From the NCBI GenBank assembly GCA_965223665.1, contig OZ245011.1:608001-672000 (forward strand): a stretch of DNA of 64,000 nt. The letters are read 5' to 3'. Made by a program: the position numbers and the translations under genes. Under the pieces are notes generated by a model. That model had not been told where the DNA came from. It made no database searches and worked only from the letters and a program-made list of their open reading frames with translations. Positions 19,479-34,067 of the stretch are shown here, in pieces (the stretch's first letter is position 1; each line of letters starts with the position of its first letter). Origin of the DNA: Nitrospinaceae bacterium. Lineage in GTDB: Bacteria; Nitrospinota; Nitrospinia; Nitrospinales; Nitrospinaceae.

Positions 19479-19777
19479 TTGGGTTGAATTCCTTTGATTT
19501 TAGTTAATTTAAAAGAAAATTTCTGAGTAAATAAAAACGCTCAACCAGAGAAGAAAAAATTTAATTAGATAAGGTTTAGAATTAGATAGAACTTAATCGA
19601 AATAAAATATTGACAATCCAATAAATTAATTTAAAGATACAGAAAAATTTGTGGATTACGCTCTGAATTATAAGCCATTAAACGCTTAATATATCATTAA
19701 CTTATTTAAAAAATAATCTATGGCACCTGATAAATAAAGGTTTAAATTTAAATGTTTAATTTTTGAGGAGAAATAAA

Positions 19778-22207
19778 ATGGCAACCAAGACAAGAGGTGT
19801 TTCTTCGAAAAGGACAAACTTAAGTATCAAATTACCGAAAGGGAGTGTGAAATCCCGCCCTCGAACAAAAGCAAAACCCAAACCCAAACCTAAATTATCC
19901 TTCAGCAAAGCTAGCGCGAAACCAAAAATAAAAGCTAAAAAAAGAATAAAACTGGCCCCGGGAATGGCAGTAAAGTCTAAAGTCAAACCAAAAGCAAAAT
20001 TAAGTGTAAAACTTCCAAAAGGGGCCTCCGCAAGACCAAAAACCGGAGCAGTTAGGCCTCCTCAAAAATCCTTTGGCCTTGCTCGAGGCGTTCCGGTAAA
20101 TATGATGATTTCCAGGACAAAAGCCTTCGATCTTTCTAAGCAAATTAAATTTAGTAGCGCAACAAGAATAAAAGCGAGTTTGAAGAAGCTAAATGTAAAG
20201 GAAAGACATATTAATCCCTTAATGACTGAAATCCATCGGAAATCAGCAAATAATGCCTTGAAATTTGCTAAAACCATTCTTAGAAAAAGTGATAACGATT
20301 TACAGGGGGAAAAAGAAGGTAGAGAATTGGTGCTATGGGCTGCTGGTCGACAAAGTAAAGACCGACAATTGGTTTGTAAGGCCTTTAAACAATCTAGAAT
20401 GAATCTAATGATGGTTCATGCCATTTCTCAAATGAATCGTCCAAAGGCGAATGTTTATATGAAAGATTACTTTAAAGCCGGAGGGGATCTCAAATCAGTA
20501 TTGAGTTGGCTTGAAGTGGCTGGTGGCGTTTTGGGAAAACATCAAGCAAAGCCTCGTGGAACTGCAGGTGGGGTTGTCAAAGCGGTAAAAAAAGCTGCTA
20601 AATGGGTTAAAGATAAAGTAGAAGATGTGGTTGATGCTGCAAGTGATATGGTGAAATCGGTAGTAGATGCCATTGTCAAGGCAGGGAAATCTATTGCCTC
20701 TGCCATTAGCGCGGCCGTAAAATGGACCGCAAAAAAAATCAAAAATCTTGTGCATGCCCTGCTTGAAGCAGGGCAGAAATTGTTTAACATCCTGAAGGAG
20801 GCTGCAAAAAAAGGAATAAGCGCTTTGAAGAAGTTTGTGAAGGGTGTCATTCAAGCAGGGCAAAAACTGGTTTCTGTATTGTCCTGGGCTGCTACTCAAG
20901 TATTAAATGTGGCAAGAGAAGTTGTAAAAGCAGCCATCCAGGCGGGGAAAAAGGTTTTCCAAATATTAAGGGATGCTGTGAAATTAGCCACCAATGCTAT
21001 GCGTAAAATTGTTCAGGCCTTGATTAAAGCTGGTCGGAAATTAAGTGAAGTTTTATTTAGCGTTGCAAAATGGACGGTAAATAAAATTCGTGATGCTGTT
21101 CACGCTTTAATCGCTATTGGTAAAAAAGTGGTTCATATTCTTCAAGAAGCGGTTCGCAAGGGACTATTTGTATTGGGTAAAATGGTCCAAGGAATTATCA
21201 AAGCGGGTAAAGCCATCCGCGATGCACTCATTTGGGTTTCTAAGAAAACGTTTTCTGCTATTAAAACAGTGGTTCGTGCCATTCTTATGGCAGGAAAGAC
21301 TGTTTTGCGAATTATGATGGATGCGGTTCGACTTGGAGTTCGTGCACTTAAAAAAGTGGTTCAAGCACTTTATAAAATTGGTAGAAAAGTGGGTGAAATT
21401 CTTAAAACTGTCATTACTCGTGGATTCAGTATTATCCGCACCACTTTAGAAGGATTACTTGCTATTGGAATGCAACTGGTTCATGCAGTGAAATCAATTT
21501 TTACCGATATCGTTGCGGGTTTCCGAAAAGGATTTCTACAAGGTCTCCTGGCAATTGTAAAATCACCCTTGAAAATTCTAAAAGAAGCTGCCAAAGCAGG
21601 TGGTGCAATTATTGCGTTAGCCTTCTCTGCATTCATGGAAATGTGGGGTGGTCACCGAGGCTTGACTGCCGCTGAAAAAGTACAAGCACGTAAGGTATTT
21701 GGTTGGTCTATTAATCTTGACCGGGTGAAAATTGCGGTTGCTAGTATTCCGGCTGATGTTGTGAATTGGATTAATGGCGGTAGACCTTTTACCACTATGT
21801 ACGTTATTAATTTTAAATCAGGTACCAAAATCAAAATGGCAACTTTGATCCACGAATTGACTCATGTTTGGCAAGCGGTAATTGCCGGTCCTGTTTACAT
21901 GGTCGAAGCTTTACACTCACAAGCTTTTGGAAAAGGTTACAAAGTGACTCAAGCTGATTTGGATAAAGCGAGTGGAAATATCAAAAAGCTTGAAAGAGAA
22001 CAGCAAGCTAAAGTTGTGGAATGGTATTGGCAGCATAAATTTGCTACCAAAGCGGCAGACAAATCAGGTGCCCAGTTTGACGAAGCAACTTTAAAACCAT
22101 TTTGGGAAGATGTATTTAAGCCAAGGACAACAAAAATTCGATTTAATTCTCGAATTCCAGTGGCAGGTATGATCCGACCTATGCGTATTAAACTTGCTAC
22201 TTCATAG
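19778..22207 (+). CDS. Large cationic helical-repeat protein with C-terminal HExxH zincin (DUF4157/Rhs-associated-like) domain
   Basis: SD gaggag before ATG at 19778; K/P-rich N-terminus; 29-aa repeats; RGLT..E...AR.VFG.SI..DRVKI, LIHELTHVWQ, EQQA. Confidence 0.8.
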   Translation: MATKTRGVSSKRTNLSIKLPKGSVKSRPRTKAKPKPKPKLSFSKASAKPKIKAKKRIKLAPGMAVKSKVKPKAKLSVKLPKGASARPKTGAVRPPQKSFGLARGVPVNMMISRTKAFDLSKQIKFSSATRIKASLKKLNVKERHINPLMTEIHRKSANNALKFAKTILRKSDNDLQGEKEGRELVLWAAGRQSKDRQLVCKAFKQSRMNLMMVHAISQMNRPKANVYMKDYFKAGGDLKSVLSWLEVAGGVLGKHQAKPRGTAGGVVKAVKKAAKWVKDKVEDVVDAASDMVKSVVDAIVKAGKSIASAISAAVKWTAKKIKNLVHALLEAGQKLFNILKEAAKKGISALKKFVKGVIQAGQKLVSVLSWAATQVLNVAREVVKAAIQAGKKVFQILRDAVKLATNAMRKIVQALIKAGRKLSEVLFSVAKWTVNKIRDAVHALIAIGKKVVHILQEAVRKGLFVLGKMVQGIIKAGKAIRDALIWVSKKTFSAIKTVVRAILMAGKTVLRIMMDAVRLGVRALKKVVQALYKIGRKVGEILKTVITRGFSIIRTTLEGLLAIGMQLVHAVKSIFTDIVAGFRKGFLQGLLAIVKSPLKILKEAAKAGGAIIALAFSAFMEMWGGHRGLTAAEKVQARKVFGWSINLDRVKIAVASIPADVVNWINGGRPFTTMYVINFKSGTKIKMATLIHELTHVWQAVIAGPVYMVEALHSQAFGKGYKVTQADLDKASGNIKKLEREQQAKVVEWYWQHKFATKAADKSGAQFDEATLKPFWEDVFKPRTTKIRFNSRIPVAGMIRPMRIKLATS
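20660..21619 (+). repeat. Eleven tandem ~29-aa amphipathic helical repeats (87-nt period) inside the large protein
   Basis: Units VVDAIVKAGKSI.., LVHALLEAGQKL.., FVKGVIQAGQKL.., VVKAAIQAGKKV.., IVQALIKAGRKL.. etc. in 29-aa register. Confidence 0.85.
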
Positions 22208-22216
22208 TAACGAGTT

Positions 22217-23128
22217 ATGAAGCAGCCAAAAGTTTTAGGATGTATAGCTCCTGCTTCTTATCAATCTATTCTCCGGCGGAAATTGGGTGAGATTAATATC
22301 CAAATCCGTTTTCGCCGGAGAAATGATGATGTTTTAAATTCCTACCCCAAAAACGATCCTTATTATATTGAGCAATTAGCTAAATCTCTAAAAAATAAAG
22401 TTGATGCAATTTTGCTAATAGCTCCTAGGCATCGATCTGCTAAAAATATAATTCCCCGTCCAGTTATTGAAGGACTCTCTATAGGGTTATTGTTTTCCAA
22501 TCAACCTGAAGATTTAGATTCATGGTTTAAAGGGCTCAAAGAGCAAACTCAGGGTACATCCACTTGGGCTATTCTTTCAAAGTGGAGCGATTATTATATT
22601 TCCAGAAGTTTACGTGTAGCCAAATGGTTACGGGGTTACAATCCTGAAGGAGTGGAAACTTGGTTTGCGGATGAAGTCTCCCGTGATGAATTATGCCAAA
22701 AACTTGCTACAGGGCCACGGCTAGCTTGGTATATGGGACACGCGCGTGCTCAAGGTTTGTCTGCTTATTATGGAGTTCGTTACCGGCATTTAGAGGAGGT
22801 TTCTGAATTTGCTCCTTGCGGTTCGGTGATTTGTTTGGCTTGTGATACCTTAAAGCAAGTTCGTAAAACCTTACCATTTGGATGTGATTGGGTGTTGAGC
22901 GGACGAGCAGCTGCTTATTTTGGTTCAGTGGCTTCCATTAGCATGTACAGCACTTTAAATATGGCCTATGAAATTGGAGCTGTCATTGAAAACAGGCGTG
23001 CCTTGGTCCTTGGTGATATTCTTGTCCAGTTGGAGAATCGATTTCAACAATTTAAATCGTTAAAGAAAACTCATCAAGCCTTTAAAACTTACCGAATTAT
23101 TGGAAATCCCCTACAGCCATTGCTATAG
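22217..23128 (+). CDS. Clan CD cysteine peptidase, C25 (gingipain)-like, no signal peptide
   Basis: YMGHA (His175) and ICLAC (Cys209), G.AAAYFGS, terminal YRIIGNP resembling the C25 Y.L.GDP end. Confidence 0.72.
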   Translation: MKQPKVLGCIAPASYQSILRRKLGEINIQIRFRRRNDDVLNSYPKNDPYYIEQLAKSLKNKVDAILLIAPRHRSAKNIIPRPVIEGLSIGLLFSNQPEDLDSWFKGLKEQTQGTSTWAILSKWSDYYISRSLRVAKWLRGYNPEGVETWFADEVSRDELCQKLATGPRLAWYMGHARAQGLSAYYGVRYRHLEEVSEFAPCGSVICLACDTLKQVRKTLPFGCDWVLSGRAAAYFGSVASISMYSTLNMAYEIGAVIENRRALVLGDILVQLENRFQQFKSLKKTHQAFKTYRIIGNPLQPLL

Positions 23129-26732: not shown

Positions 26733-27611
26733 ATGGATGCAATAGTTCAAGATTTTATCGATCACTTGACAGTGGAAAGACGGCTTTCCACAAATACAGT
26801 GGAAGGTTATAAAAGAGATATAAGAAAACTGACCAGTTTTCTATGTTCACTTTCTTTGAAAGAAGTTCAAACCAGTGATATACGTCAATTTTTATTATCT
26901 TTGCAACGCCAAAATCTTTCTACTAGGACAATAGCTCGATGTTTGTCTTCCATCAAGGCTTTTTTTAAGTTTTTGTTGATTGAAGGCCAAATTCAAGAAA
27001 ACCCTGCCGAGATCCTGGAATCTCCAAAATTGTGGAGAAAACTTCCGAAGGTTTTGTCTTTGAATGAAGTTTCAAATTTATTAAATGGTCCTGATTTGTC
27101 AACTCTTATGGGACTGAGAGACAAGGCAATGCTCGAAGTGTTATATGCTACAGGTCTCAGAGTATCTGAGTTAGTTTCTATTCAGGTGGGAGATTTAAAC
27201 ATGGATATTGGGTACTGCAGATCTATGGGAAAAGGAAAAAAAGAGCGATTAATTCCTTTTGGTTTGGTGGCCAAGGGCTGGGTTGAAAATTATATAAATA
27301 ATGCCAGGCCTGCCTTATTAAAAGGGAAAAATCATCCTTATCTTTTTGTTTCCCAACGAGGTACAAAAATGACTCGCCAGGGATTTTGGAAAATCCTAAA
27401 ACGATACGCTAAAAAGACCCAAATGAAAGGAGTATTATCTCCCCATACTTTAAGACATGCATTTGCGACCCATTTATTGGAAGGAGGAGCAGATTTACGT
27501 TCTGTCCAGCAAATGCTGGGACACGCGGATATTTCAACCACGCAAATTTATACACATATTCTTGAAAAACGAATGCGGGAAGTCTTTGATCAATTTCACC
27601 CTCGCGCATGA
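26733..27611 (+). CDS. xerD: Tyrosine recombinase XerD
   Basis: LYATGLRVSEL, PHTLRHAFATHLL, LGHADISTTQIY, ends HPRA. Confidence 0.93.
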   Translation: MDAIVQDFIDHLTVERRLSTNTVEGYKRDIRKLTSFLCSLSLKEVQTSDIRQFLLSLQRQNLSTRTIARCLSSIKAFFKFLLIEGQIQENPAEILESPKLWRKLPKVLSLNEVSNLLNGPDLSTLMGLRDKAMLEVLYATGLRVSELVSIQVGDLNMDIGYCRSMGKGKKERLIPFGLVAKGWVENYINNARPALLKGKNHPYLFVSQRGTKMTRQGFWKILKRYAKKTQMKGVLSPHTLRHAFATHLLEGGADLRSVQQMLGHADISTTQIYTHILEKRMREVFDQFHPRA

Positions 27612-28641: not shown

Positions 28642-29805
28642 ATGAAAATTGCCGTTGATGCAATGGGTGGAGATTTTGCTCCTGAGTCCATTGTAGAAGG
28701 ATCAGTTCTTGCCGCCAGAGAATTTGGCATTCCAATCATTCTGACTGGGATTGAAAGCCGCGTTCACCATGTTCTTGAAAAATATGATGACTGGAAATCT
28801 CTACCTATTGAAGTGCAGCACGCTGAAGAAGTTGTGGATATGGGAGAAAGTCCCAGTAAAGCTGTAAGAGGAAAAAGAAAATCTTCAATGAAAGTGGGGC
28901 TTGACTTAGTCAAAAGAGGTGAAGCCTCAGCGTTTGTAAGTGCGGGTAATACCGGGGCTGTGTTAGCTTATTCCACTATTATTTTAAGACCTTTAAAAGG
29001 AGTAGACCGACCTGCTATTGCTATTCAACTTCCTACACTCAAGGGGACCTCTATATTATTAGATGCAGGTGCTAATGTAGATTGTAAAACCATGCAGTTA
29101 TTTCAATTTGGTGTTATGGGCCATGTCTTTGCAAAATATATATTGGAAAAAGACAATCCAGGGGTAGGTTTATTGAGTATCGGTGAAGAAGATGGAAAAG
29201 GAAATGAGACCACAAAAGAAGCATTTAAGATGCTAAAAAAAAGTCATATTAATTTCATAGGAAATGTTGAGGGAAAAGAAGTCTATCGAGGGAATGCGGA
29301 CGTAATCGTTTGTGATGGTTTTACTGGAAATGTGGCGTTAAAAATAAGTGAAAGCCTCGCGGAAATGATAGGGACAAATTTAAAAACATTGTTCAGTACC
29401 AGTTATTCAACAAAATTAGGATATCTTTTATTAAAAAATCATTTGTTGGAATTTAAAAAATCTGTAGACTATTCAGAAAAAGGGGGGGCACCTTTATTGG
29501 GTGTCAATGGGGTTTGTATAATTGCTCATGGTAGCTCCAATGCCAAAGCAATTAAAAATGCAATTTTTCGTGCCCATGAACTCATCGAAAAAAAAATAAA
29601 TGAGCATATAAGTGAAGATATTGAAATCAATTTAGAGTCCAGTGTTGGGTCTTTTTGGCAAAACTTAAAAGAAAAAATTGTTCCTCGATCTGAGGAAGAG
29701 GAAAATATTCAGGAAGAAACCATTGAGGAACAAGAAGAGTCTTCAGAAACTGAAGAAGATGTCGATGAATCTGAAGATAAAGATAAAAAAGAAACAGAAG
29801 AGTAA
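28642..29805 (+). CDS. plsX: Phosphate acyltransferase PlsX (with acidic tail)
   Basis: IAVDAMGGDFAP, SAGNTGA, DGFTGNV. Confidence 0.97.
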   Translation: MKIAVDAMGGDFAPESIVEGSVLAAREFGIPIILTGIESRVHHVLEKYDDWKSLPIEVQHAEEVVDMGESPSKAVRGKRKSSMKVGLDLVKRGEASAFVSAGNTGAVLAYSTIILRPLKGVDRPAIAIQLPTLKGTSILLDAGANVDCKTMQLFQFGVMGHVFAKYILEKDNPGVGLLSIGEEDGKGNETTKEAFKMLKKSHINFIGNVEGKEVYRGNADVIVCDGFTGNVALKISESLAEMIGTNLKTLFSTSYSTKLGYLLLKNHLLEFKKSVDYSEKGGAPLLGVNGVCIIAHGSSNAKAIKNAIFRAHELIEKKINEHISEDIEINLESSVGSFWQNLKEKIVPRSEEEENIQEETIEEQEESSETEEDVDESEDKDKKETEE

Positions 29806-29842
29806 TTTGCAAAGGAATGCGGTTTAATTAAAACATTAACGC

Positions 29843-30844
29843 ATGAGCCAACAGATACCATTTAAGGCAGAGATAATCGCCACGGGTGCTTATCTGCCAG
29901 AAAAAGTACTTACTAATCAAGACTTAGAAAGTACCTTAAATACTACCGATGAGTGGATCCGAACCAGAACTGGTATCTCTGAACGGAGAATTGCTCGTAA
30001 AGACGAGTTTGCGTCAACTTTAGGAACCGAGGCTTCCAGAATGGCTTTATTAAAAGCTGGAATGAATCCTAAAGAAATCGACATGATAATTACTTGCACC
30101 TCGACACCAGATGTGATTTACCCATCCACCGGCTGTTTTATTCAAAAAGAATTAGGAGCATCCAAGGCGGCAGCTTATGACATTTCTGCAGTTTGTTCCG
30201 GGTTTGTTTATGGATTATCTATTGCAGAGCAGTATTTAAAGTGTGGGCGTTACGAAAATATTTTAGTCATAGGTACTGAAGTAAACTCTAGAATTTTGGA
30301 TTGGTCTGACCGTGGTACTTGTATATTATTTGGTGATGGAGCTGGAGCGGCAATTTTAAGGAAGTCCAGTAAAGAAATTCCCACTGGAATTTTATCCTCT
30401 CATATTTATTCCGATGGAACCCAATCAGAAATGGTTATTGTGCCTGGGGGAATAGGTAGAACTTCGATGACTCATGAGTCGGTTAACAATAAAATGTTTT
30501 GTTTGAAAATGGCTGGGCAGTCCACTTTCAAAGTGGCGGTAAAAAGAATGGTAGAAGTGAGTATTGAGGCATTAGAGCTACATGGGTTAACAAAAGATGA
30601 TGTGGATTTAGTCATTCCCCACCAAGCTAATCAAAGAATTATTGAGGCAGTTTCTGAAAAATTGGGAATCGGGATGGATCGCATTATGGTCAATATAAAT
30701 AAATATGGAAATACAGGAGGTGCTTCAATTCCCATTGCACTTCATGAAGCTTATGAATCCGGTAGAATTAAACCCGGTTCGCTGATACTACTAACCGCTT
30801 TAGGAGCGGGATTAACATGGGGGGCGACTGCAATTCGATGGTAA
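29843..30844 (+). CDS. fabH: 3-oxoacyl-ACP synthase III
   Basis: AVCSGF, FGDGAGA, PHQAN, YGNT. Confidence 0.97.
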   Translation: MSQQIPFKAEIIATGAYLPEKVLTNQDLESTLNTTDEWIRTRTGISERRIARKDEFASTLGTEASRMALLKAGMNPKEIDMIITCTSTPDVIYPSTGCFIQKELGASKAAAYDISAVCSGFVYGLSIAEQYLKCGRYENILVIGTEVNSRILDWSDRGTCILFGDGAGAAILRKSSKEIPTGILSSHIYSDGTQSEMVIVPGGIGRTSMTHESVNNKMFCLKMAGQSTFKVAVKRMVEVSIEALELHGLTKDDVDLVIPHQANQRIIEAVSEKLGIGMDRIMVNINKYGNTGGASIPIALHEAYESGRIKPGSLILLTALGAGLTWGATAIRW

Positions 30845-31788
30845 AAATAGCTTTTCTTTTTCCAGGTCAAGGTTCCCAATTTGTTGGAATGGGAAAGGAA
30901 TTTTATGAGAGTGACCCAGAGTCTCGGTCAATGTTTGAAGAAGCTTCCGAAGTACTCGGAGAGGATTTCTCCAAAATTTGTTTTGAAGGACCGGAGGATG
31001 TTCTTAAATTAACTCAAAATGCGCAACCAGCACTATTAATCCATAGTACAATTGCCTTGAAAAGGCTAAAGGAAAATGGTATTAATTCGGTATTGGCGGC
31101 TGGCCATAGTTTAGGAGAATATTCTGCTTTAGTGGCCGCCGGCTCCTTGCAATTTAAAGATGCTGTGCATTTGGTAAGACAGCGAGGCCGTTTCATGCAG
31201 GAAGCTGTACCCGTGGGAATAGGGGCCATGTCAGCTATTATTGGTTTGCCTATTGAAAAGGTACAAGATCTTTGCAACCAAGCCTCCACTCCAGAAAAAG
31301 TTGTTCAACCCGCCAATATGAATAGCCCGCAACAAACTGTGATTGCAGGTCATAAGGAACAGGTTGAACAGGTGTCGGAATTAGCGAAAAAGTCTGGCGC
31401 AAAAAAGACCGTAATTTTGCCAGTCAGCGCTCCATTCCATTGCTCTCTCATGAAACCTGCAGAGAGAAAACTTCAAGTAGAGTTAGAAAAAACGGATTTT
31501 CAAAATTTGTCAATTCCAGTTGTTACAAATATTAATGCAAAACCAGTTACTCAAGGAAATGAAGCCAGGGAAGCTTTGGTGAAACAAGTATGTTCTCCTG
31601 TCCGCTGGACAGAAACTATGCAATATATTGTGAGTCAAGGCATTAATGCTATTGTAGAATTGGGGTCGGGAAAAGTTTTATCCGGGTTGATAAAAAGGTT
31701 TGATAAAAGTATTGAGTGTTTTCAAGTAGGGGATCCGGAATCATTAGAAAAATCAATTTCGGGTTTGAAACAAGTTCAAGCAGGATAA
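30838..31788 (+). CDS. fabD: Malonyl-CoA:ACP transacylase
   Basis: FPGQGSQ, GHSLGEY, VSAPFH; ATG at 30838. Confidence 0.97.
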   Translation: MVKIAFLFPGQGSQFVGMGKEFYESDPESRSMFEEASEVLGEDFSKICFEGPEDVLKLTQNAQPALLIHSTIALKRLKENGINSVLAAGHSLGEYSALVAAGSLQFKDAVHLVRQRGRFMQEAVPVGIGAMSAIIGLPIEKVQDLCNQASTPEKVVQPANMNSPQQTVIAGHKEQVEQVSELAKKSGAKKTVILPVSAPFHCSLMKPAERKLQVELEKTDFQNLSIPVVTNINAKPVTQGNEAREALVKQVCSPVRWTETMQYIVSQGINAIVELGSGKVLSGLIKRFDKSIECFQVGDPESLEKSISGLKQVQAG

Positions 31789-31790
31789 GG

Positions 31791-32531
31791 ATGGAGCTTA
31801 AAAATAAAATTGCATTGGTGACCGGTGGAGCCCGTGGTATTGGCAAAACTGTTGGTGAGCATTTGGGTCAATTAGGAGCCCATGTAGTCTTAGGTGATGT
31901 CCAATTGGATATGGCACAAAAGACGGCTGAAGAAATAAAAATGGATGGTGGATCTGCTTCAGCGGTGGAATTAAATGTTACGAACGGGGAACAAGTACAA
32001 AATGTTTTTGATTCTATTTCAAAAGAATTTAAACTGGTAGACATTCTTGTTAATAATGCAGGAATTACTCGTGACGGTTTGTTAATGAGAATGAAGGAAT
32101 CCGATTGGGATTTAGTTTTAAATATCAATCTCAAAGGGAGCTTCCTTTGCAGTCAGCAAGCGGCAAAGCAGATGATCAAACAAAAGGATGGGGCGATTGT
32201 TAATATAGCTTCTATTGTTGGTTTGATGGGAAATGCCGGACAAGCCAATTATTCGGCTTCAAAAGCAGGGTTGATAGGATTAACCAAAACCACTGCGAGA
32301 GAAGTTGCCTCTCGTGGGATTCGAGTGAATGCAATTGCTCCTGGGTTTATAGATACAGCAATGACCCAAGAGTTGGATGATAAGGTTCGAGAAAAACTTA
32401 TTGAACAAATTCCTCTTGCCAAATTAGGGCAACCGGAAGATATTGCAAATTGTGTGAGTTTTTTAGTTTCTGACCGGGCGCGTTATATCACAGGTCAGGT
32501 AATTAGTGTAAACGGTGGGATGTTGATGTAA
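31791..32531 (+). CDS. fabG: 3-oxoacyl-ACP reductase
   Basis: TGGARGIG, NNAGITRD, YSASK; ATG at 31791. Confidence 0.97.
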   Translation: MELKNKIALVTGGARGIGKTVGEHLGQLGAHVVLGDVQLDMAQKTAEEIKMDGGSASAVELNVTNGEQVQNVFDSISKEFKLVDILVNNAGITRDGLLMRMKESDWDLVLNINLKGSFLCSQQAAKQMIKQKDGAIVNIASIVGLMGNAGQANYSASKAGLIGLTKTTAREVASRGIRVNAIAPGFIDTAMTQELDDKVREKLIEQIPLAKLGQPEDIANCVSFLVSDRARYITGQVISVNGGMLM

Positions 32532-32553
32532 CATCTTTTAGGAGTCAGTCACT

Positions 32554-32787
32554 ATGTCTGTTGAAGAAAAAGTAAAAGAAATAATCGTTGATCAATTAGG
32601 AGTTGAAGAAAAACAAGTTTCAGGAAATGCTGCTTTTATTGATGATTTGGGAGCAGACTCCCTGGACACAGTTGAATTGGTTATGGCTTTAGAAGAGGCT
32701 TTCGATATAGAAATCCCTGATGAAGAAGCCGAGAAAATTTCTACCGTTCAAGACGCTGTCGATTATATCAATAATCATACCAACTAA
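32554..32787 (+). CDS. acpP: Acyl carrier protein
   Basis: [18 protein letters not shown]. Confidence 0.99.
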
Positions 32788-32825
32788 ATCTACTATCATT
32801 TTATTTTTACCATTTGTAACAAACT

Positions 32826-34067
32826 ATGACTAGAAGAGTTGTCATCACAGGCATTGGAATGCTCACGCCATTGGGGAATGGGCTAGAAAAAAATTGGTCT
32901 TCTGTAATTGAAGGGAAGTCTGGGGTTCGGTCTTTGACTAAATTCCCCGTGGATGAAAACTTTCCAGTACGTATTGCGGGCGAAGTTGATGGTTTTAAGC
33001 CCGAGGATTATATTGACCATAAAGATGTAAAAAAAATGGATACTTTCATTCACTATGCTGTTGCCTGCAGTAAAATGGCTCTAACAGACTCTGAATTTTT
33101 AATTACAGAGGAAAATGCAGAGAGAGTCGGGGTATTAGTTGGGGTTGGTCTTGGCGGCTTACCTGCAATTGAAAGATATAACCAGATTTATCAAAATCGA
33201 GGGGTGAAAAAAATTACGCCATTTTTTATACCCATGCTTATTCCCAATTTAGCTTCAGGACAAGTTTCTATATTGTTAGGTGCGAAAGGCCCTAATTCCT
33301 GCGTTGTAACAGCTTGTGCTACTGGAACCCATGCGATTGGTGACGCATTTCGAATGATTCAAAATGATATTGCAGATGTAATGATAGCGGGAGGAACAGA
33401 ATCTGTAATTACACCATTGGCAATTGGGGGGTTTGCGGCTGCAAAGGCACTGTCAACACGTAATGATGATCCGGAAACTGCAAGTCGACCTTTTGACATT
33501 GATCGTGACGGTTTTGTTATGGGTGAAGGATGTGGAATTGTAATATTGGAAGAATATGAAAAAGCTAAGAAACGTGGTGCAAATATATATGCTGAAGTTG
33601 CAGGTTATGCCTTAAATGGGGATGCTTTTCACATCACAGCCACTTCTCCGGGTGGTGAAGGTGCAGCCCGATGTATGAAATTAGCCTTGGAAGATGCAAA
33701 AATGAATGTTGATGAAATTGACTATATTAATGCTCATGGAACTTCTACTGCAGCTGATGCTACTGAGACGAATGCTATTAAAACAGTATTTGGAGATCAT
33801 GCATATAAATTAAAAGTTAGTTCCACCAAATCCATGACAGGACATTTGTTAGGTGCCGCTGGAGGGGTTGAGGCAATCTATTCTGCGATGGCAATTAAAA
33901 AGGGAATAATACCACCCACCATAAATTATTCAAATCCTGACCCGGAATGTGATTTAAACTATGTTCCTAATAATGCAATTGAGCAACCAATCCGGGCAGC
34001 CATTTCTAATTCTTTTGGGTTTGGAGGAACTAACGGAGTGTTAGTTTTAAAACAACCGATGAATTGA
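32826..34067 (+). CDS. fabF: 3-oxoacyl-ACP synthase II
   Basis: TACATG, HGTST, GHLLGAAG, SNSFGFGG. Confidence 0.98.
   Translation: MTRRVVITGIGMLTPLGNGLEKNWSSVIEGKSGVRSLTKFPVDENFPVRIAGEVDGFKPEDYIDHKDVKKMDTFIHYAVACSKMALTDSEFLITEENAERVGVLVGVGLGGLPAIERYNQIYQNRGVKKITPFFIPMLIPNLASGQVSILLGAKGPNSCVVTACATGTHAIGDAFRMIQNDIADVMIAGGTESVITPLAIGGFAAAKALSTRNDDPETASRPFDIDRDGFVMGEGCGIVILEEYEKAKKRGANIYAEVAGYALNGDAFHITATSPGGEGAARCMKLALEDAKMNVDEIDYINAHGTSTAADATETNAIKTVFGDHAYKLKVSSTKSMTGHLLGAAGGVEAIYSAMAIKKGIIPPTINYSNPDPECDLNYVPNNAIEQPIRAAISNSFGFGGTNGVLVLKQPMN

Follow-up and report, generated by a model that had tools for sequence, protein, structure and literature searches.

A conserved gene pair encoding a rod-borne zincin and a predicted minimal gingipain-fold protease: a candidate effector cassette in Nitrospinaceae and other bacteria

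What does a large helical-repeat protein with a zinc metallopeptidase at its end have to do with the small cysteine protease encoded nine bases behind it? The question is raised by a stretch of 64,000 nucleotides, called the window here, from a Nitrospinaceae bacterium (assembly GCA_965223665.1, contig OZ245011.1, positions 608,001 to 672,000 of the forward strand). The two genes in question, gene 1 for the helical-repeat or 'rod-zincin' protein and gene 2 for the protease, are listed with their features in Table 1. Established are the folds and motifs of the two proteins, the homology of the zincin to effector domains associated with type VI secretion systems (T6SS), with extracellular contractile injection systems (eCIS) and with RTX repeats, and the near-obligate adjacency of the two genes. 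On this basis we tentatively read the pair as an effector cassette, in which the clan-CD enzyme would act in trans on the rod-zincin to release or license the zincin in the service of antagonism; we give this reading a probability of roughly 0.4.

That the two genes belong together can be seen from their arrangement in other organisms. A metagenome scan with the gene 1 alignment gave 332 confirmed relatives, the best 80 of which serve as the loci discussed here (L-numbered), and the six-frame open reading frames (ORFs) of these loci were searched with profiles of both families. Strong gene 1 homologues (E<1e-40) occur in 58 loci, 54 of which offer enough room downstream, that is, at least 900 bp. 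In 52 of these 54 (50 of 52 without the duplicates L023 and L027) gene 1 is immediately followed by a same-strand gene 2 homologue, and the E-values of the gene 2 hidden Markov model across the paired loci span 1e-5 to 1e-151. Two loci break the pattern: in L012 gene 1 is followed by a ParA/NUBPL-type ATPase, and in L016 by two short ORFs of unknown kind. Even among the four strong loci with less than 900 bp downstream, one still shows the start of gene 2. The pairing also occurs in a Ca. Acidoferrum metagenome-assembled genome (MAG; L002, Acidobacteriota), with a 969-aa gene 1 and then a gene 2 at 34% identity; a Longimicrobiaceae MAG has both genes, each at a contig end. None of the genome records retrieved shows gene 2 beside anything other than gene 1. 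The adjacency is strongly conserved and near-obligate, to a degree that could not be known when the pair was first noticed.

This conservation bears on one rival account of the locus, in which co-transcription is all that links the two genes, each product having unrelated substrates of its own and no direct functional contact with the other. Against it, adjacency, order and strand are kept in those 52 of 54 loci although the loci are very divergent, gene 2 keeps no other company, and the divergence of the two proteins is positively correlated. In a mirror-tree comparison, which is only weakly informative, the Pearson coefficient of pairwise divergence is 0.44, a value reached in 0 of 2000 permutations, with a weak Spearman coefficient of 0.12; relatedness inflates such tests. 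We consider independent action very unlikely.

The part of gene 1 that is most conserved in every homologue seen is its C-terminal zincin. The AlphaFold2 model of gene 1, built with 28 homologues, has 6h56_B as its top match in VIA-align (Z 12.8, root mean square deviation (rmsd) 4.6, 163 of 179 residues, covering model residues 596-777), the next match falling to Z 8.8. Searches of the PDB lead to the same structure: the profile of the gene 1 family (A2) matches 6h56_A at E 2.4e-8 over chain residues 71-230, which is the whole domain, and the single sequence has 6H56 as its sole match (E 0.19). This structure is VgrG2b-Cter of Pseudomonas aeruginosa, the only clear solved relative of the zincin. 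The two have the motifs R-x-L-[ST]-x-x-E, VFG-x-SI, IHE[LM]THVWQ and EQQ in common. The first-pass annotation had placed a DUF4157-like zincin at the end of gene 1, and the homology to VgrG2b-Cter bears this out.

The relationship to DUF4157 in the narrow sense is more remote. Pfam PF13699 (eCIS_core) does not match gene 1 at E<=1; sub-threshold matches appear in 4 of 20 gene 1 relatives (E 0.018-0.084), and one zincin-only relative, L078, lies above the eCIS_core cut-off (30.5 bits vs 22). An hhalign comparison of the A2 profile with the canonical eCIS_core protein of the same genome is marginal (probability 21%, E 0.001). As far as sequence comparison can tell, the gene 1 zincin appears to be a divergent sister branch and not a member of core PF13699, with a link to eCIS_core that looks real but distant.

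Homologues of the C-terminal part of gene 1 number 256 at E<=1e-3, and those listed come, by name, from myxobacteria (Archangium, Cystobacter, Hyalangium), Algoriphagus, Limnobacter and various MAGs. The motif H[ED]xxHxxQ is present in 120 of the 120 homologues listed, and HExxHxxQ in all 58 strong metagenomic loci. A search with the N-terminal part, limited in sensitivity, gave six proteins, all of them already among the C-terminal homologues. Since both proteins of the pair have many homologues with the same motifs, the features of the genes go beyond chance. Two ideas were discarded. A possible cleavage site ahead of the zincin, 'GGHR-x-LT', was rejected as protease-specific because R-x-L-[ST]-x-x-E is part of the zincin itself and recurs in VgrG2b as well as in zincin-only relatives without the protease. 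A viral origin was likewise rejected: among 2.9 million viral contigs no full-length relative was found, only six weak matches to the zincin core (27-28% identity over about 100 residues).

What do such zincins do elsewhere? VgrG2b-Cter is described, in the part of the study drawn on here, as a T6SS-delivered metallopeptidase that is harmless in the cytoplasm of E. coli and lethal in the periplasm, that is inactivated by mutating the glutamate or the histidines of HExxH, and whose directly downstream gene encodes a small immunity protein that resides in the periplasm, binds the toxin and neutralises it (PMC6899460). Zhang et al. 2012, again as far as drawn on here, report second, C-terminal 'PVC-metallopeptidase' domains in toxin position, where they are themselves the toxin, as well as caspase-like and PVC-metallopeptidase domains that occur together as releasing peptidases on several toxin families (PMC3482391).

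The zincin relatives outside the pair seem to point in the same direction, that is, to secretion or injection. In L082 a 221-aa zincin lies inside a T6SS cluster (TssC, TssA); in L070 and L073 the zincin is fused to RTX repeats, with a subtilase also present in L070. An eCIS_core domain and a zincin stand together in L071, followed by an AAA ATPase, and in L083, where the protein comes after a BTAD regulator.

Two further loci deserve a description of their own. L064 (2880-8564) encodes three tandem proteins of 592-646 aa, each with a canonical N-terminal eCIS_core; the last of them also carries a gene 1-type zincin at its C-terminus (43% identity, residues 627-750), and the set looks like a paralogous cargo array. 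L068 (1110-5796) encodes, in this order, a zincin-only relative of 210 aa, a protein of 856 aa with a CHAT domain, and a DUF7379 protein. Judged by its domains, this is a second, independent pairing of a gene 1-type zincin with a clan-CD protease.

Gene 2 is hard to place by sequence. On its own it finds nothing meaningful in Pfam (no match at E<=1), NCBIfam, PADLOC or the PDB. A word-indexed search yielded ten relatives, and in the alignment of all eleven proteins His175 is invariant and Cys209 is missing solely from a truncated member. Pfam Peptidase_C25 (PF01364) matches nine of the eleven at E<=10, the best at 7e-8, with the window protein unmatched. Against the PDB, the family profile has one match, gingipain R2. 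The match is weak (E 0.52) and sets GH175 on chain position 211 and Cys209 on 244, which we take to be the catalytic His and Cys of RgpB.

The AlphaFold2 model of gene 2, with a predicted local distance difference test score (pLDDT) of 91.6 and a predicted template modelling (TM) score of 0.92, leads to the same family of proteases. Foldseek ranks RgpB first (E 2.2e-12, TM-score 0.72), followed by Kgp, separase and CRISPR-associated CHAT proteases. In VIA-align, RgpB (1cvr) reaches Z 28.0 at an rmsd of 3.1 with 290 of 303 residues aligned, and Kgp reaches Z 25.1; the next matches are clearly lower, with separase at about 17, the Craspase TPR-CHAT at about 16, SAVED-CHAT at 15.2 and caspases at about 11. 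The model thus gives gene 2 a predicted caspase-hemoglobinase alpha/beta fold with a gingipain-type two-subdomain catalytic domain, possibly as a separate family within clan CD. A gingipain-like clan-CD fold had been predicted from the letters alone, and the Z-scores to RgpB and Kgp together with the aligned, conserved dyad agree with it. The details named at the time are all present too: the His175/Cys209 dyad in GHA and LAC with its 34-residue spacing, and a GNP near the end of the protein, which reads ...RIIGNPLQPLL.

What sets gene 2 apart is its economy. It consists of one bare catalytic domain, aligning end to end with the catalytic domain of RgpB only; prodomain, Ig-like domain and type IX secretion system C-terminal domain are not present in the structural alignment. 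By inspection it has no N-terminal hydrophobic segment (maximum 19-residue Kyte-Doolittle mean 1.03), and we infer a cytoplasmic protein. Gene 1 shows no such stretch by inspection either, its maximum being 1.37; the first-pass statement that neither protein has a signal peptide stands. A transmembrane segment considered at gene 1 residues 604-622 was rejected, as the same maximum of 1.37 is below the usual threshold.

A profile search of 1.84 billion representatives shows how far this family reaches: at the 50% identity that defines the clusters, 292 of them match at E<=1e-3, 203 at <=1e-10 and 98 at <=1e-30. All 150 family representatives listed are at most 434 aa long, so that none of these is fused to another domain. 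Across 59 homologues, Cys209 is found in 58 of the 58 that cover the column, Gly174 in 59 of 59 and His175 in 52 of 59. In the remaining seven (L025, L032, L037, L040, L043, L049 and L063) the catalytic His has given way to Arg, Gln or Glu, with the Cys and the fold-defining glycines kept; the zincins adjoining them retain HExxHxxQ, and the partner zincin sequences seemingly arrange the seven into two groups. These variants may be pseudo-proteases retained for binding.

Could gene 2, then, neutralise gene 1 and not activate it? It sits where an immunity gene would sit, and its product could bind the zincin stoichiometrically or degrade stray toxin in the producer. The seven His-less homologues retained beside an intact zincin would fit a binding role, and over 25 loci the sequence of gene 2 changes more quickly than that of the zincin domain (mean pairwise identity 0.33 vs 0.46). 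There is also the precedent of VgrG2b/Tpe, where, according to the portion of the source used here, the immunity gene lies directly downstream of the zincin and its product binds the toxin; yet the immunity proteins known there, Tpi/PA0261, are small and periplasmic because the toxin acts in the periplasm (PMC6899460), whereas gene 2 has no export signal by inspection. Moreover, the invariant Cys209 and a Gly174-His175 that persists in most homologues argue for catalysis in most lineages. A neutralising role appears quite unlikely to us. We know of no immunity protein with a gingipain fold.

The remainder of gene 1 gives the zincin its carrier. Behind the N-terminal tail lies a conserved all-helical head domain with conserved columns at R196, F203, H214, M228 and W244; its structural matches are generic helical ones (Z <8), and it was assigned to no known family. 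It is followed by the repeat region, whose periodicity is visible as self-similarity peaks at lags 29 and 58. Ten units have their [AI]G turn in exact register and one more is degenerate, so that the protein described earlier, 809 aa with a Lys/Arg-rich N-terminus, eleven repeats and HELTH, is indeed found, with ten regular units and one degenerate. The repeats are predicted to form an alpha-solenoid, with a pLDDT of about 85-92 up to about residue 540 and low confidence for the C-terminal two or three units. With the whole gene 1 model, Foldseek returns repeat proteins only, among them designed armadillo/HEAT-like repeats. The first-pass annotation had spoken of amphipathic repeats and of a membrane-active or proteolytic effector; the prediction here is a folded solenoid and not a set of free amphipathic helices.

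Nor does the charge of the protein hold across its family. In the window protein the first 110 residues contain 34 K+R and zero D/E, but a tail of more than 50 residues is present in just 3 of the 28 proteins of the family alignment. The repeat region of these 28 members varies from 120 to 371 aa in length and from 0 to +44 in net charge, with the window protein at the extreme; a cationic, membrane-active character was accordingly rejected as a family trait. The same variation leaves unsupported the earlier idea of a gingipain-like protease that processes a K/R-rich partner to release a membrane-active product, because the K/R-rich tail and the cationic repeats are limited to the lineage of the window.

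Above the Pfam cut-offs the repeats match Phasin_2 (E 3.6e-7) and Senescence (6.5e-7), with perilipin and apolipophorin families weak, and the only PADLOC model to match gene 1 is ZorA (E 3.4e-6, repeat residues 270-414). In the ESM Atlas, the clusters of one homologue are labelled Phasin_2/eCIS_core only. We read the Phasin_2, Senescence, apolipophorin and ZorA matches as compositional or helical-repeat similarity. They could also be taken at face value, and the rod would then be an intracellular scaffold or a granule- or membrane-associated protein that needs two peptidases for its turnover or maturation, with one sub-clade tied to an acyl carrier protein (ACP) and a ketosynthase.

The neighbourhood of some loci speaks for such a physiological role. 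Among the 26 pair loci with at least 2.5 kb downstream, eight encode a ketosynthase on the same strand no more than about 260 bp from gene 2, and in six of these eight an ACP-like ORF with a DSL motif lies in between; five ketosynthases were confirmed by Pfam. The housekeeping character of the flanking genes can be added. On the other side, the ketosynthase is convergent and more distant in two of the 26 loci and absent from 16, as it is from the window. The extension thus belongs to one sub-clade, and the window holds the two-gene core only. Furthermore, phasin and apolipoprotein matches reflect low-complexity amphipathic helices, whereas AlphaFold2 predicts a folded solenoid; the zincin relatives are toxins or effectors; and the pair, which only some 0.5-2% of the genomes of a phylum possess, is spread too thinly to belong to core physiology. 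All in all, a physiological role strikes us as rather improbable.

The individual loci can be listed for reference. A same-strand continuation by an ACP-like ORF and a ketosynthase of about 384 aa, with more ORFs after them, was noted in L046, L048, L051, L052/L053, L054, L055, L058, L065, L066 and L067, and a convergent, more distant ketosynthase in L028, L029 and L031.

How widespread is the pair, and in what company does it travel? It is found in 2 of 120 Nitrospinota genomes, both of one genus, while gene 1 occurs in 1 of 200 sampled Acidobacteriota and in 1 of 201 sampled Gemmatimonadota genomes. The distribution is rare, patchy and accessory. A Pfam search of 53 neighbour ORFs from 20 loci found neighbours that differ between loci and are mostly housekeeping genes. 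PADLOC was run on 150 of 229 neighbour ORFs, which cover 17 loci and one ORF of an 18th, and it identified clear defence genes beside the pair in two of the roughly 17 loci. In L022 (11958-13604) a dCTP-deaminase-type defence gene lies directly downstream of the pair (PADLOC dCTPase, E 7.5e-152), and in L037 (5263-10214) the pair adjoins a CRISPR-Cas module of type III-B (Cmr3-6, Csx1).

These observations are what an intracellular role in defence or programmed death has to be measured by. Here, a protease triggered by infection or stress would cut the rod-zincin, and the freed zincin would degrade the cell's own proteins. Parallels would be the gasdermin-activating caspase-like proteases or the CHAT proteases found in CRISPR/CBASS systems. 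Once the gingipains are set aside, gene 2 structurally most resembles separase and the TPR-CHAT and SAVED-CHAT proteases, which are regulated intracellular clan-CD proteases; neither protein has a signal peptide by inspection; a rare and patchy distribution resembles that of defence genes; and there are the contacts with defence genes in L022 and L037 and of a zincin-only relative with a CHAT protein in L068. However, gene 2 matches none of the PADLOC-DB 2.0 models, and the ZorA match of gene 1 is taken as one to helical repeats. No sensor domain (NTPase, SAVED, TPR or nucleic-acid binding) was found in either protein, and the neighbours are housekeeping genes in about 15 of the 17 loci scanned, as in the window. 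In addition, the characterised zincin relative is toxic in the periplasm only and harmless in the cytoplasm, as far as the consulted part of the study goes (PMC6899460). That full-length viral relatives are absent says nothing for or against defence. The first-pass annotation had favoured defence, programmed death or conflict; the genomic context lends defence little support, and we think such a role unlikely.

We return to the effector cassette, which fits this body of evidence as follows. The pair would be a self-contained, horizontally mobile two-gene cassette. In gene 1, a helical head and a solenoid rod of variable length would carry a C-terminal zinc metallopeptidase of the injected-toxin type, and gene 2 would be a minimal cytoplasmic gingipain-fold protease that works on its neighbour in trans. 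It might cut the rod-zincin, or hold and then cut it, by which the zincin would be freed or activated, and the cassette could then serve antagonism against other cells. The trans action is suggested by analogy, because cis-fused caspase-like/DUF4157 releasing peptidases are thought to act in this manner.

By which route might the rod-zincin leave the cell? An eCIS is the most plausible exit, though unproven. The genome of the window has a complete eCIS cluster at about 1,375,900-1,401,700 (loci L096 and L097, outside the window), about 745 kb from the pair. It encodes Pvc16_N, a sheath, two gp19 tubes, CIS_tube, a VgrG-like spike, gp25, Baseplate_J and CIS_TMP, and beyond these a fibre-like protein with CarboxypepD_reg domains, an AAA ATPase and an eCIS_core protein of 1875 aa, the canonical cargo, which has an acidic N-terminal region. 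A canonical eCIS_core protein is present in all four pair-bearing genomes, which represent three independent lineages, and TssC is absent from all four. Among the other sampled genomes, eCIS_core occurs in 9 of 118 Nitrospinota, 17 of 199 Acidobacteriota and 19 of 200 Gemmatimonadota, the last two counts including the unpublished genomes G295, G377 and G417, which enter no other result. Simple multiplication puts the chance of three hits at about 6 in 10,000, a figure that ignores genome size and lifestyle.

Several observations weigh against the effector cassette or its link to an eCIS. The co-occurrence with eCIS is suggestive but comprises three lineages only, and the base rate of eCIS_core is higher in the family of the window (6 of 20), with which the chance becomes about 2 in 1,000. 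No eCIS or T6SS gene was found by Pfam beside the pair, either in the window or among the 53 neighbour ORFs of 20 loci. Published eCIS toxins lie mostly within ten genes of the eCIS operon, in the part of that survey drawn on here (PMC11297309), and at about 745 kb the pair is outside this range. In those DUF4157 cargos that have been characterised, a disordered N-terminal loading sequence precedes the domain, according to the portions of the reports used (PMC8894135, 2026 preprint). In gene 1 the disordered tail, the candidate loading signal, is absent from most family members (>50 aa in 3 of 28), and it is basic where the N-terminal region of the canonical cargo of the genome is acidic. As to the release itself, proteolysis by gene 2 cannot be essential in the His-less lineages, because the His is lost there and the HExxHxxQ of the partner is intact. 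The zincin C-terminus never varies, unlike the tips of polymorphic toxins. Finally, a simple model of toxin release does not explain the ACP/ketosynthase continuation in about one third of the loci with room for it.

One bolder idea would take up this last point. Clan CD also contains transamidase-type enzymes such as PorU, a C25-type sortase, and GPI8. Gene 2 could be a maturase of this kind that joins the cleaved rod-zincin to another molecule, which in the sub-clade with an ACP, a ketosynthase and a further ORF would be a dedicated acyl chain. This would yield a metallopeptidase toxin that has a rod of variable length and a lipid tag and is delivered without secretion genes of its own, perhaps via the tube of the distant eCIS, and the pair in the window would represent the minimal form. 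We mention this as a long shot.

The layout of the locus itself is simple (Table 1). A GAGGAG Shine-Dalgarno sequence lies 8 nt before the ATG of gene 1 at 19778; the TAG stop ends at 22207, and after the 9-base spacer TAACGAGTT gene 2 begins with ATG at 22217. The coordinates and the spacer agree with the earlier description of two co-oriented genes 9 bp apart, as does the AT-rich intergenic region of about 300 bp with its TTGACA. On the + strand of this region a scan for promoter consensus sequences gave no full sigma-70-like promoter, so that the hexamer alone is no evidence of a promoter.

Table 1 Features of the gene pair and its upstream region (positions in the window)
Feature	Position	Strand	Description
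Upstream intergenic region	19479..19777	no strand	299 bp, AT-rich, 22.4% GC vs 35.6% for the window
TTGACA hexamer	19610-19615		inside the 299-bp intergenic region upstream of gene 1
Gene 1, alternative start	TTG at 19763	+	ORF 19763..22207, 814 aa
Gene 1	19778..22207	+	809 aa from ATG; rod-zincin protein
Gene 1 residues 1-108	19778..20101	+	disordered Lys/Arg/Pro-rich tail; pLDDT about 30-35
Gene 1 residues 111-256	20108..20545	+	conserved all-helical head domain; pLDDT about 90-96
Gene 1 residues 289-607	20642..21598	+	ten to eleven 29-residue helix-turn-helix repeats, predicted alpha-solenoid
Gene 1 residues 620-790	21635..22147	+	zincin of the VgrG2b-Cter / DUF4157 (eCIS_core, 'PVC-metallopeptidase') kind
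HELTH	21851-21865	+	gene 1 residues 692-696; HELTHVWQ 692-699
Gene 2	22217..23128	+	303 aa; stand-alone, predicted gingipain-fold clan-CD cysteine peptidase
Gene 2 His175 codon	22739-22741	+	GHA motif
Gene 2 Cys209 codon	22841-22843	+	LAC motif; 34 residues after His175

Each of the two genes is single-copy in its 4.35-Mb genome, and the genes flanking them in the window are of an ordinary housekeeping type: oligopeptide ABC ATPases, a PPIase-rhodanese protein and DUF5069 upstream, and a glyoxalase, a THAP4-like haem-binding protein and BipA downstream. The window also holds the housekeeping cluster for fatty-acid synthesis (28642-34067), with unrelated genes between it and the pair. An XerC/XerD-like tyrosine recombinase with Phage_integrase and SAM-like N-terminal domains lies at 26733-27611 (+), 3.6 kb downstream of gene 2, with yceD and the plsX-fab cluster following closely; probably it marks no mobile element but is the housekeeping enzyme. 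The GC content of both genes is 40.4-40.5%, against 35.6% for the whole window; values in this range occur in other coding stretches too, so that recent transfer is not clearly indicated. In five relatives from the family the flanking PPIase-rhodanese and BipA genes do not lie in synteny, and a clean empty insertion site could not be defined.

Where does this leave the pair among known proteins? Its constituent parts, the gingipain fold and the DUF4157/VgrG2b-type zincin, are of kinds already known. What is new is the rod as a carrier, a partner in trans that is a minimal, cytoplasmic, gingipain-like enzyme, and a location remote from secretion loci. The pairing had been put forward as undescribed, and no description was found in the full-text literature, subscription journals and supplements being outside the scope of that search.

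The zincin family of DUF4157 and VgrG2b-Cter marks toxins of contractile injection systems, and here it appears in a new setting: on a solenoid rod of variable length, far from an injection locus and locked to a dedicated partner enzyme. The cassette offers a simple two-protein system in which to ask what such zincins cut and how they are switched on. Gene 2, in turn, extends the gingipain fold from the secreted virulence proteases of Bacteroidota to a minimal cytoplasmic family in environmental phyla, with about 290 clusters. Should the protease indeed process the rod-zincin, the pair would represent, in trans, the counterpart to those 'releasing peptidases' that polymorphic toxins carry in cis. 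Should the link to eCIS be real, eCIS effectors could be encoded far from their machine, contrary to an assumption of current effector-finding methods.

Among characterised systems, VgrG2b-Cter/Tpe1 (PDB 6H56) is like gene 1 in its whole-domain alignment, in the common motifs, in its C-terminal place on a large carrier and in the gene that directly follows. The carriers differ, gene 1 having a helical head and a 29-residue solenoid instead of a VgrG spike. The genome of the pair is without TssC, and injection-system genes were not found nearby. The gene that follows encodes a 303-aa gingipain-fold protein without an export signal by inspection, not a small periplasmic immunity protein.

The eCIS cargos with DUF4157 (AlgoCIS Cgo1/Cgo2) and the CIS effectors related to tape-measure proteins (Tme, Sle1/Sle2) recall the window protein with its disordered N-terminus, long helical segment and DUF4157-type domain. 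A likeness to tape-measure proteins is faint: Tape_meas_lam_C matches 5 of 20 gene 1 relatives at E 0.007-0.098, and tape-measure proteins in the PDB match the A2 profile at E 1.4e-4 and 6.9e-3. In the portions of the reports drawn on here, known cargos are encoded in or next to the CIS cluster and have DUF4157 near the N-terminus (PMC8894135, PMC11126660, PMC13277306, 2026 preprint), whereas in gene 1 the domain stands at the C-terminus, about 745 kb separate the locus from the cluster and most members are tail-less. The releasing peptidases of polymorphic toxins, as far as the study was used, likewise bring a clan-CD peptidase and a DUF4157-type zincin together in one conflict-type module (PMC3482391). 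There, however, the peptidases are cis-fused with variable toxin tips, and here we see two genes, a clan-CD enzyme of gingipain and not caspase type, and an invariant C-terminus.

Caspase-like protease/gasdermin systems and the Craspase TPR-CHAT/Csx30 also place a clan-CD protease beside its presumed substrate, and gene 2 matches CHAT proteases with Z 12-16. Bacterial caspase-like proteases activate gasdermins. The pair differs in having no gasdermin or pore-forming fold, no sensor and no CRISPR partner, and a defence context is rare. Closest to gene 2 stand the gingipains RgpB and Kgp of Porphyromonas gingivalis (MEROPS C25). At about 13% identity gene 2 is a single domain and not a secreted multidomain precursor, and it occurs in Nitrospinota, Acidobacteriota, Gemmatimonadota and others, paired with a rod-zincin. 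What it has in common with them is the two-subdomain fold and the order of His and then Cys, spaced by 34 residues in gene 2 and by 33 in the gingipains.

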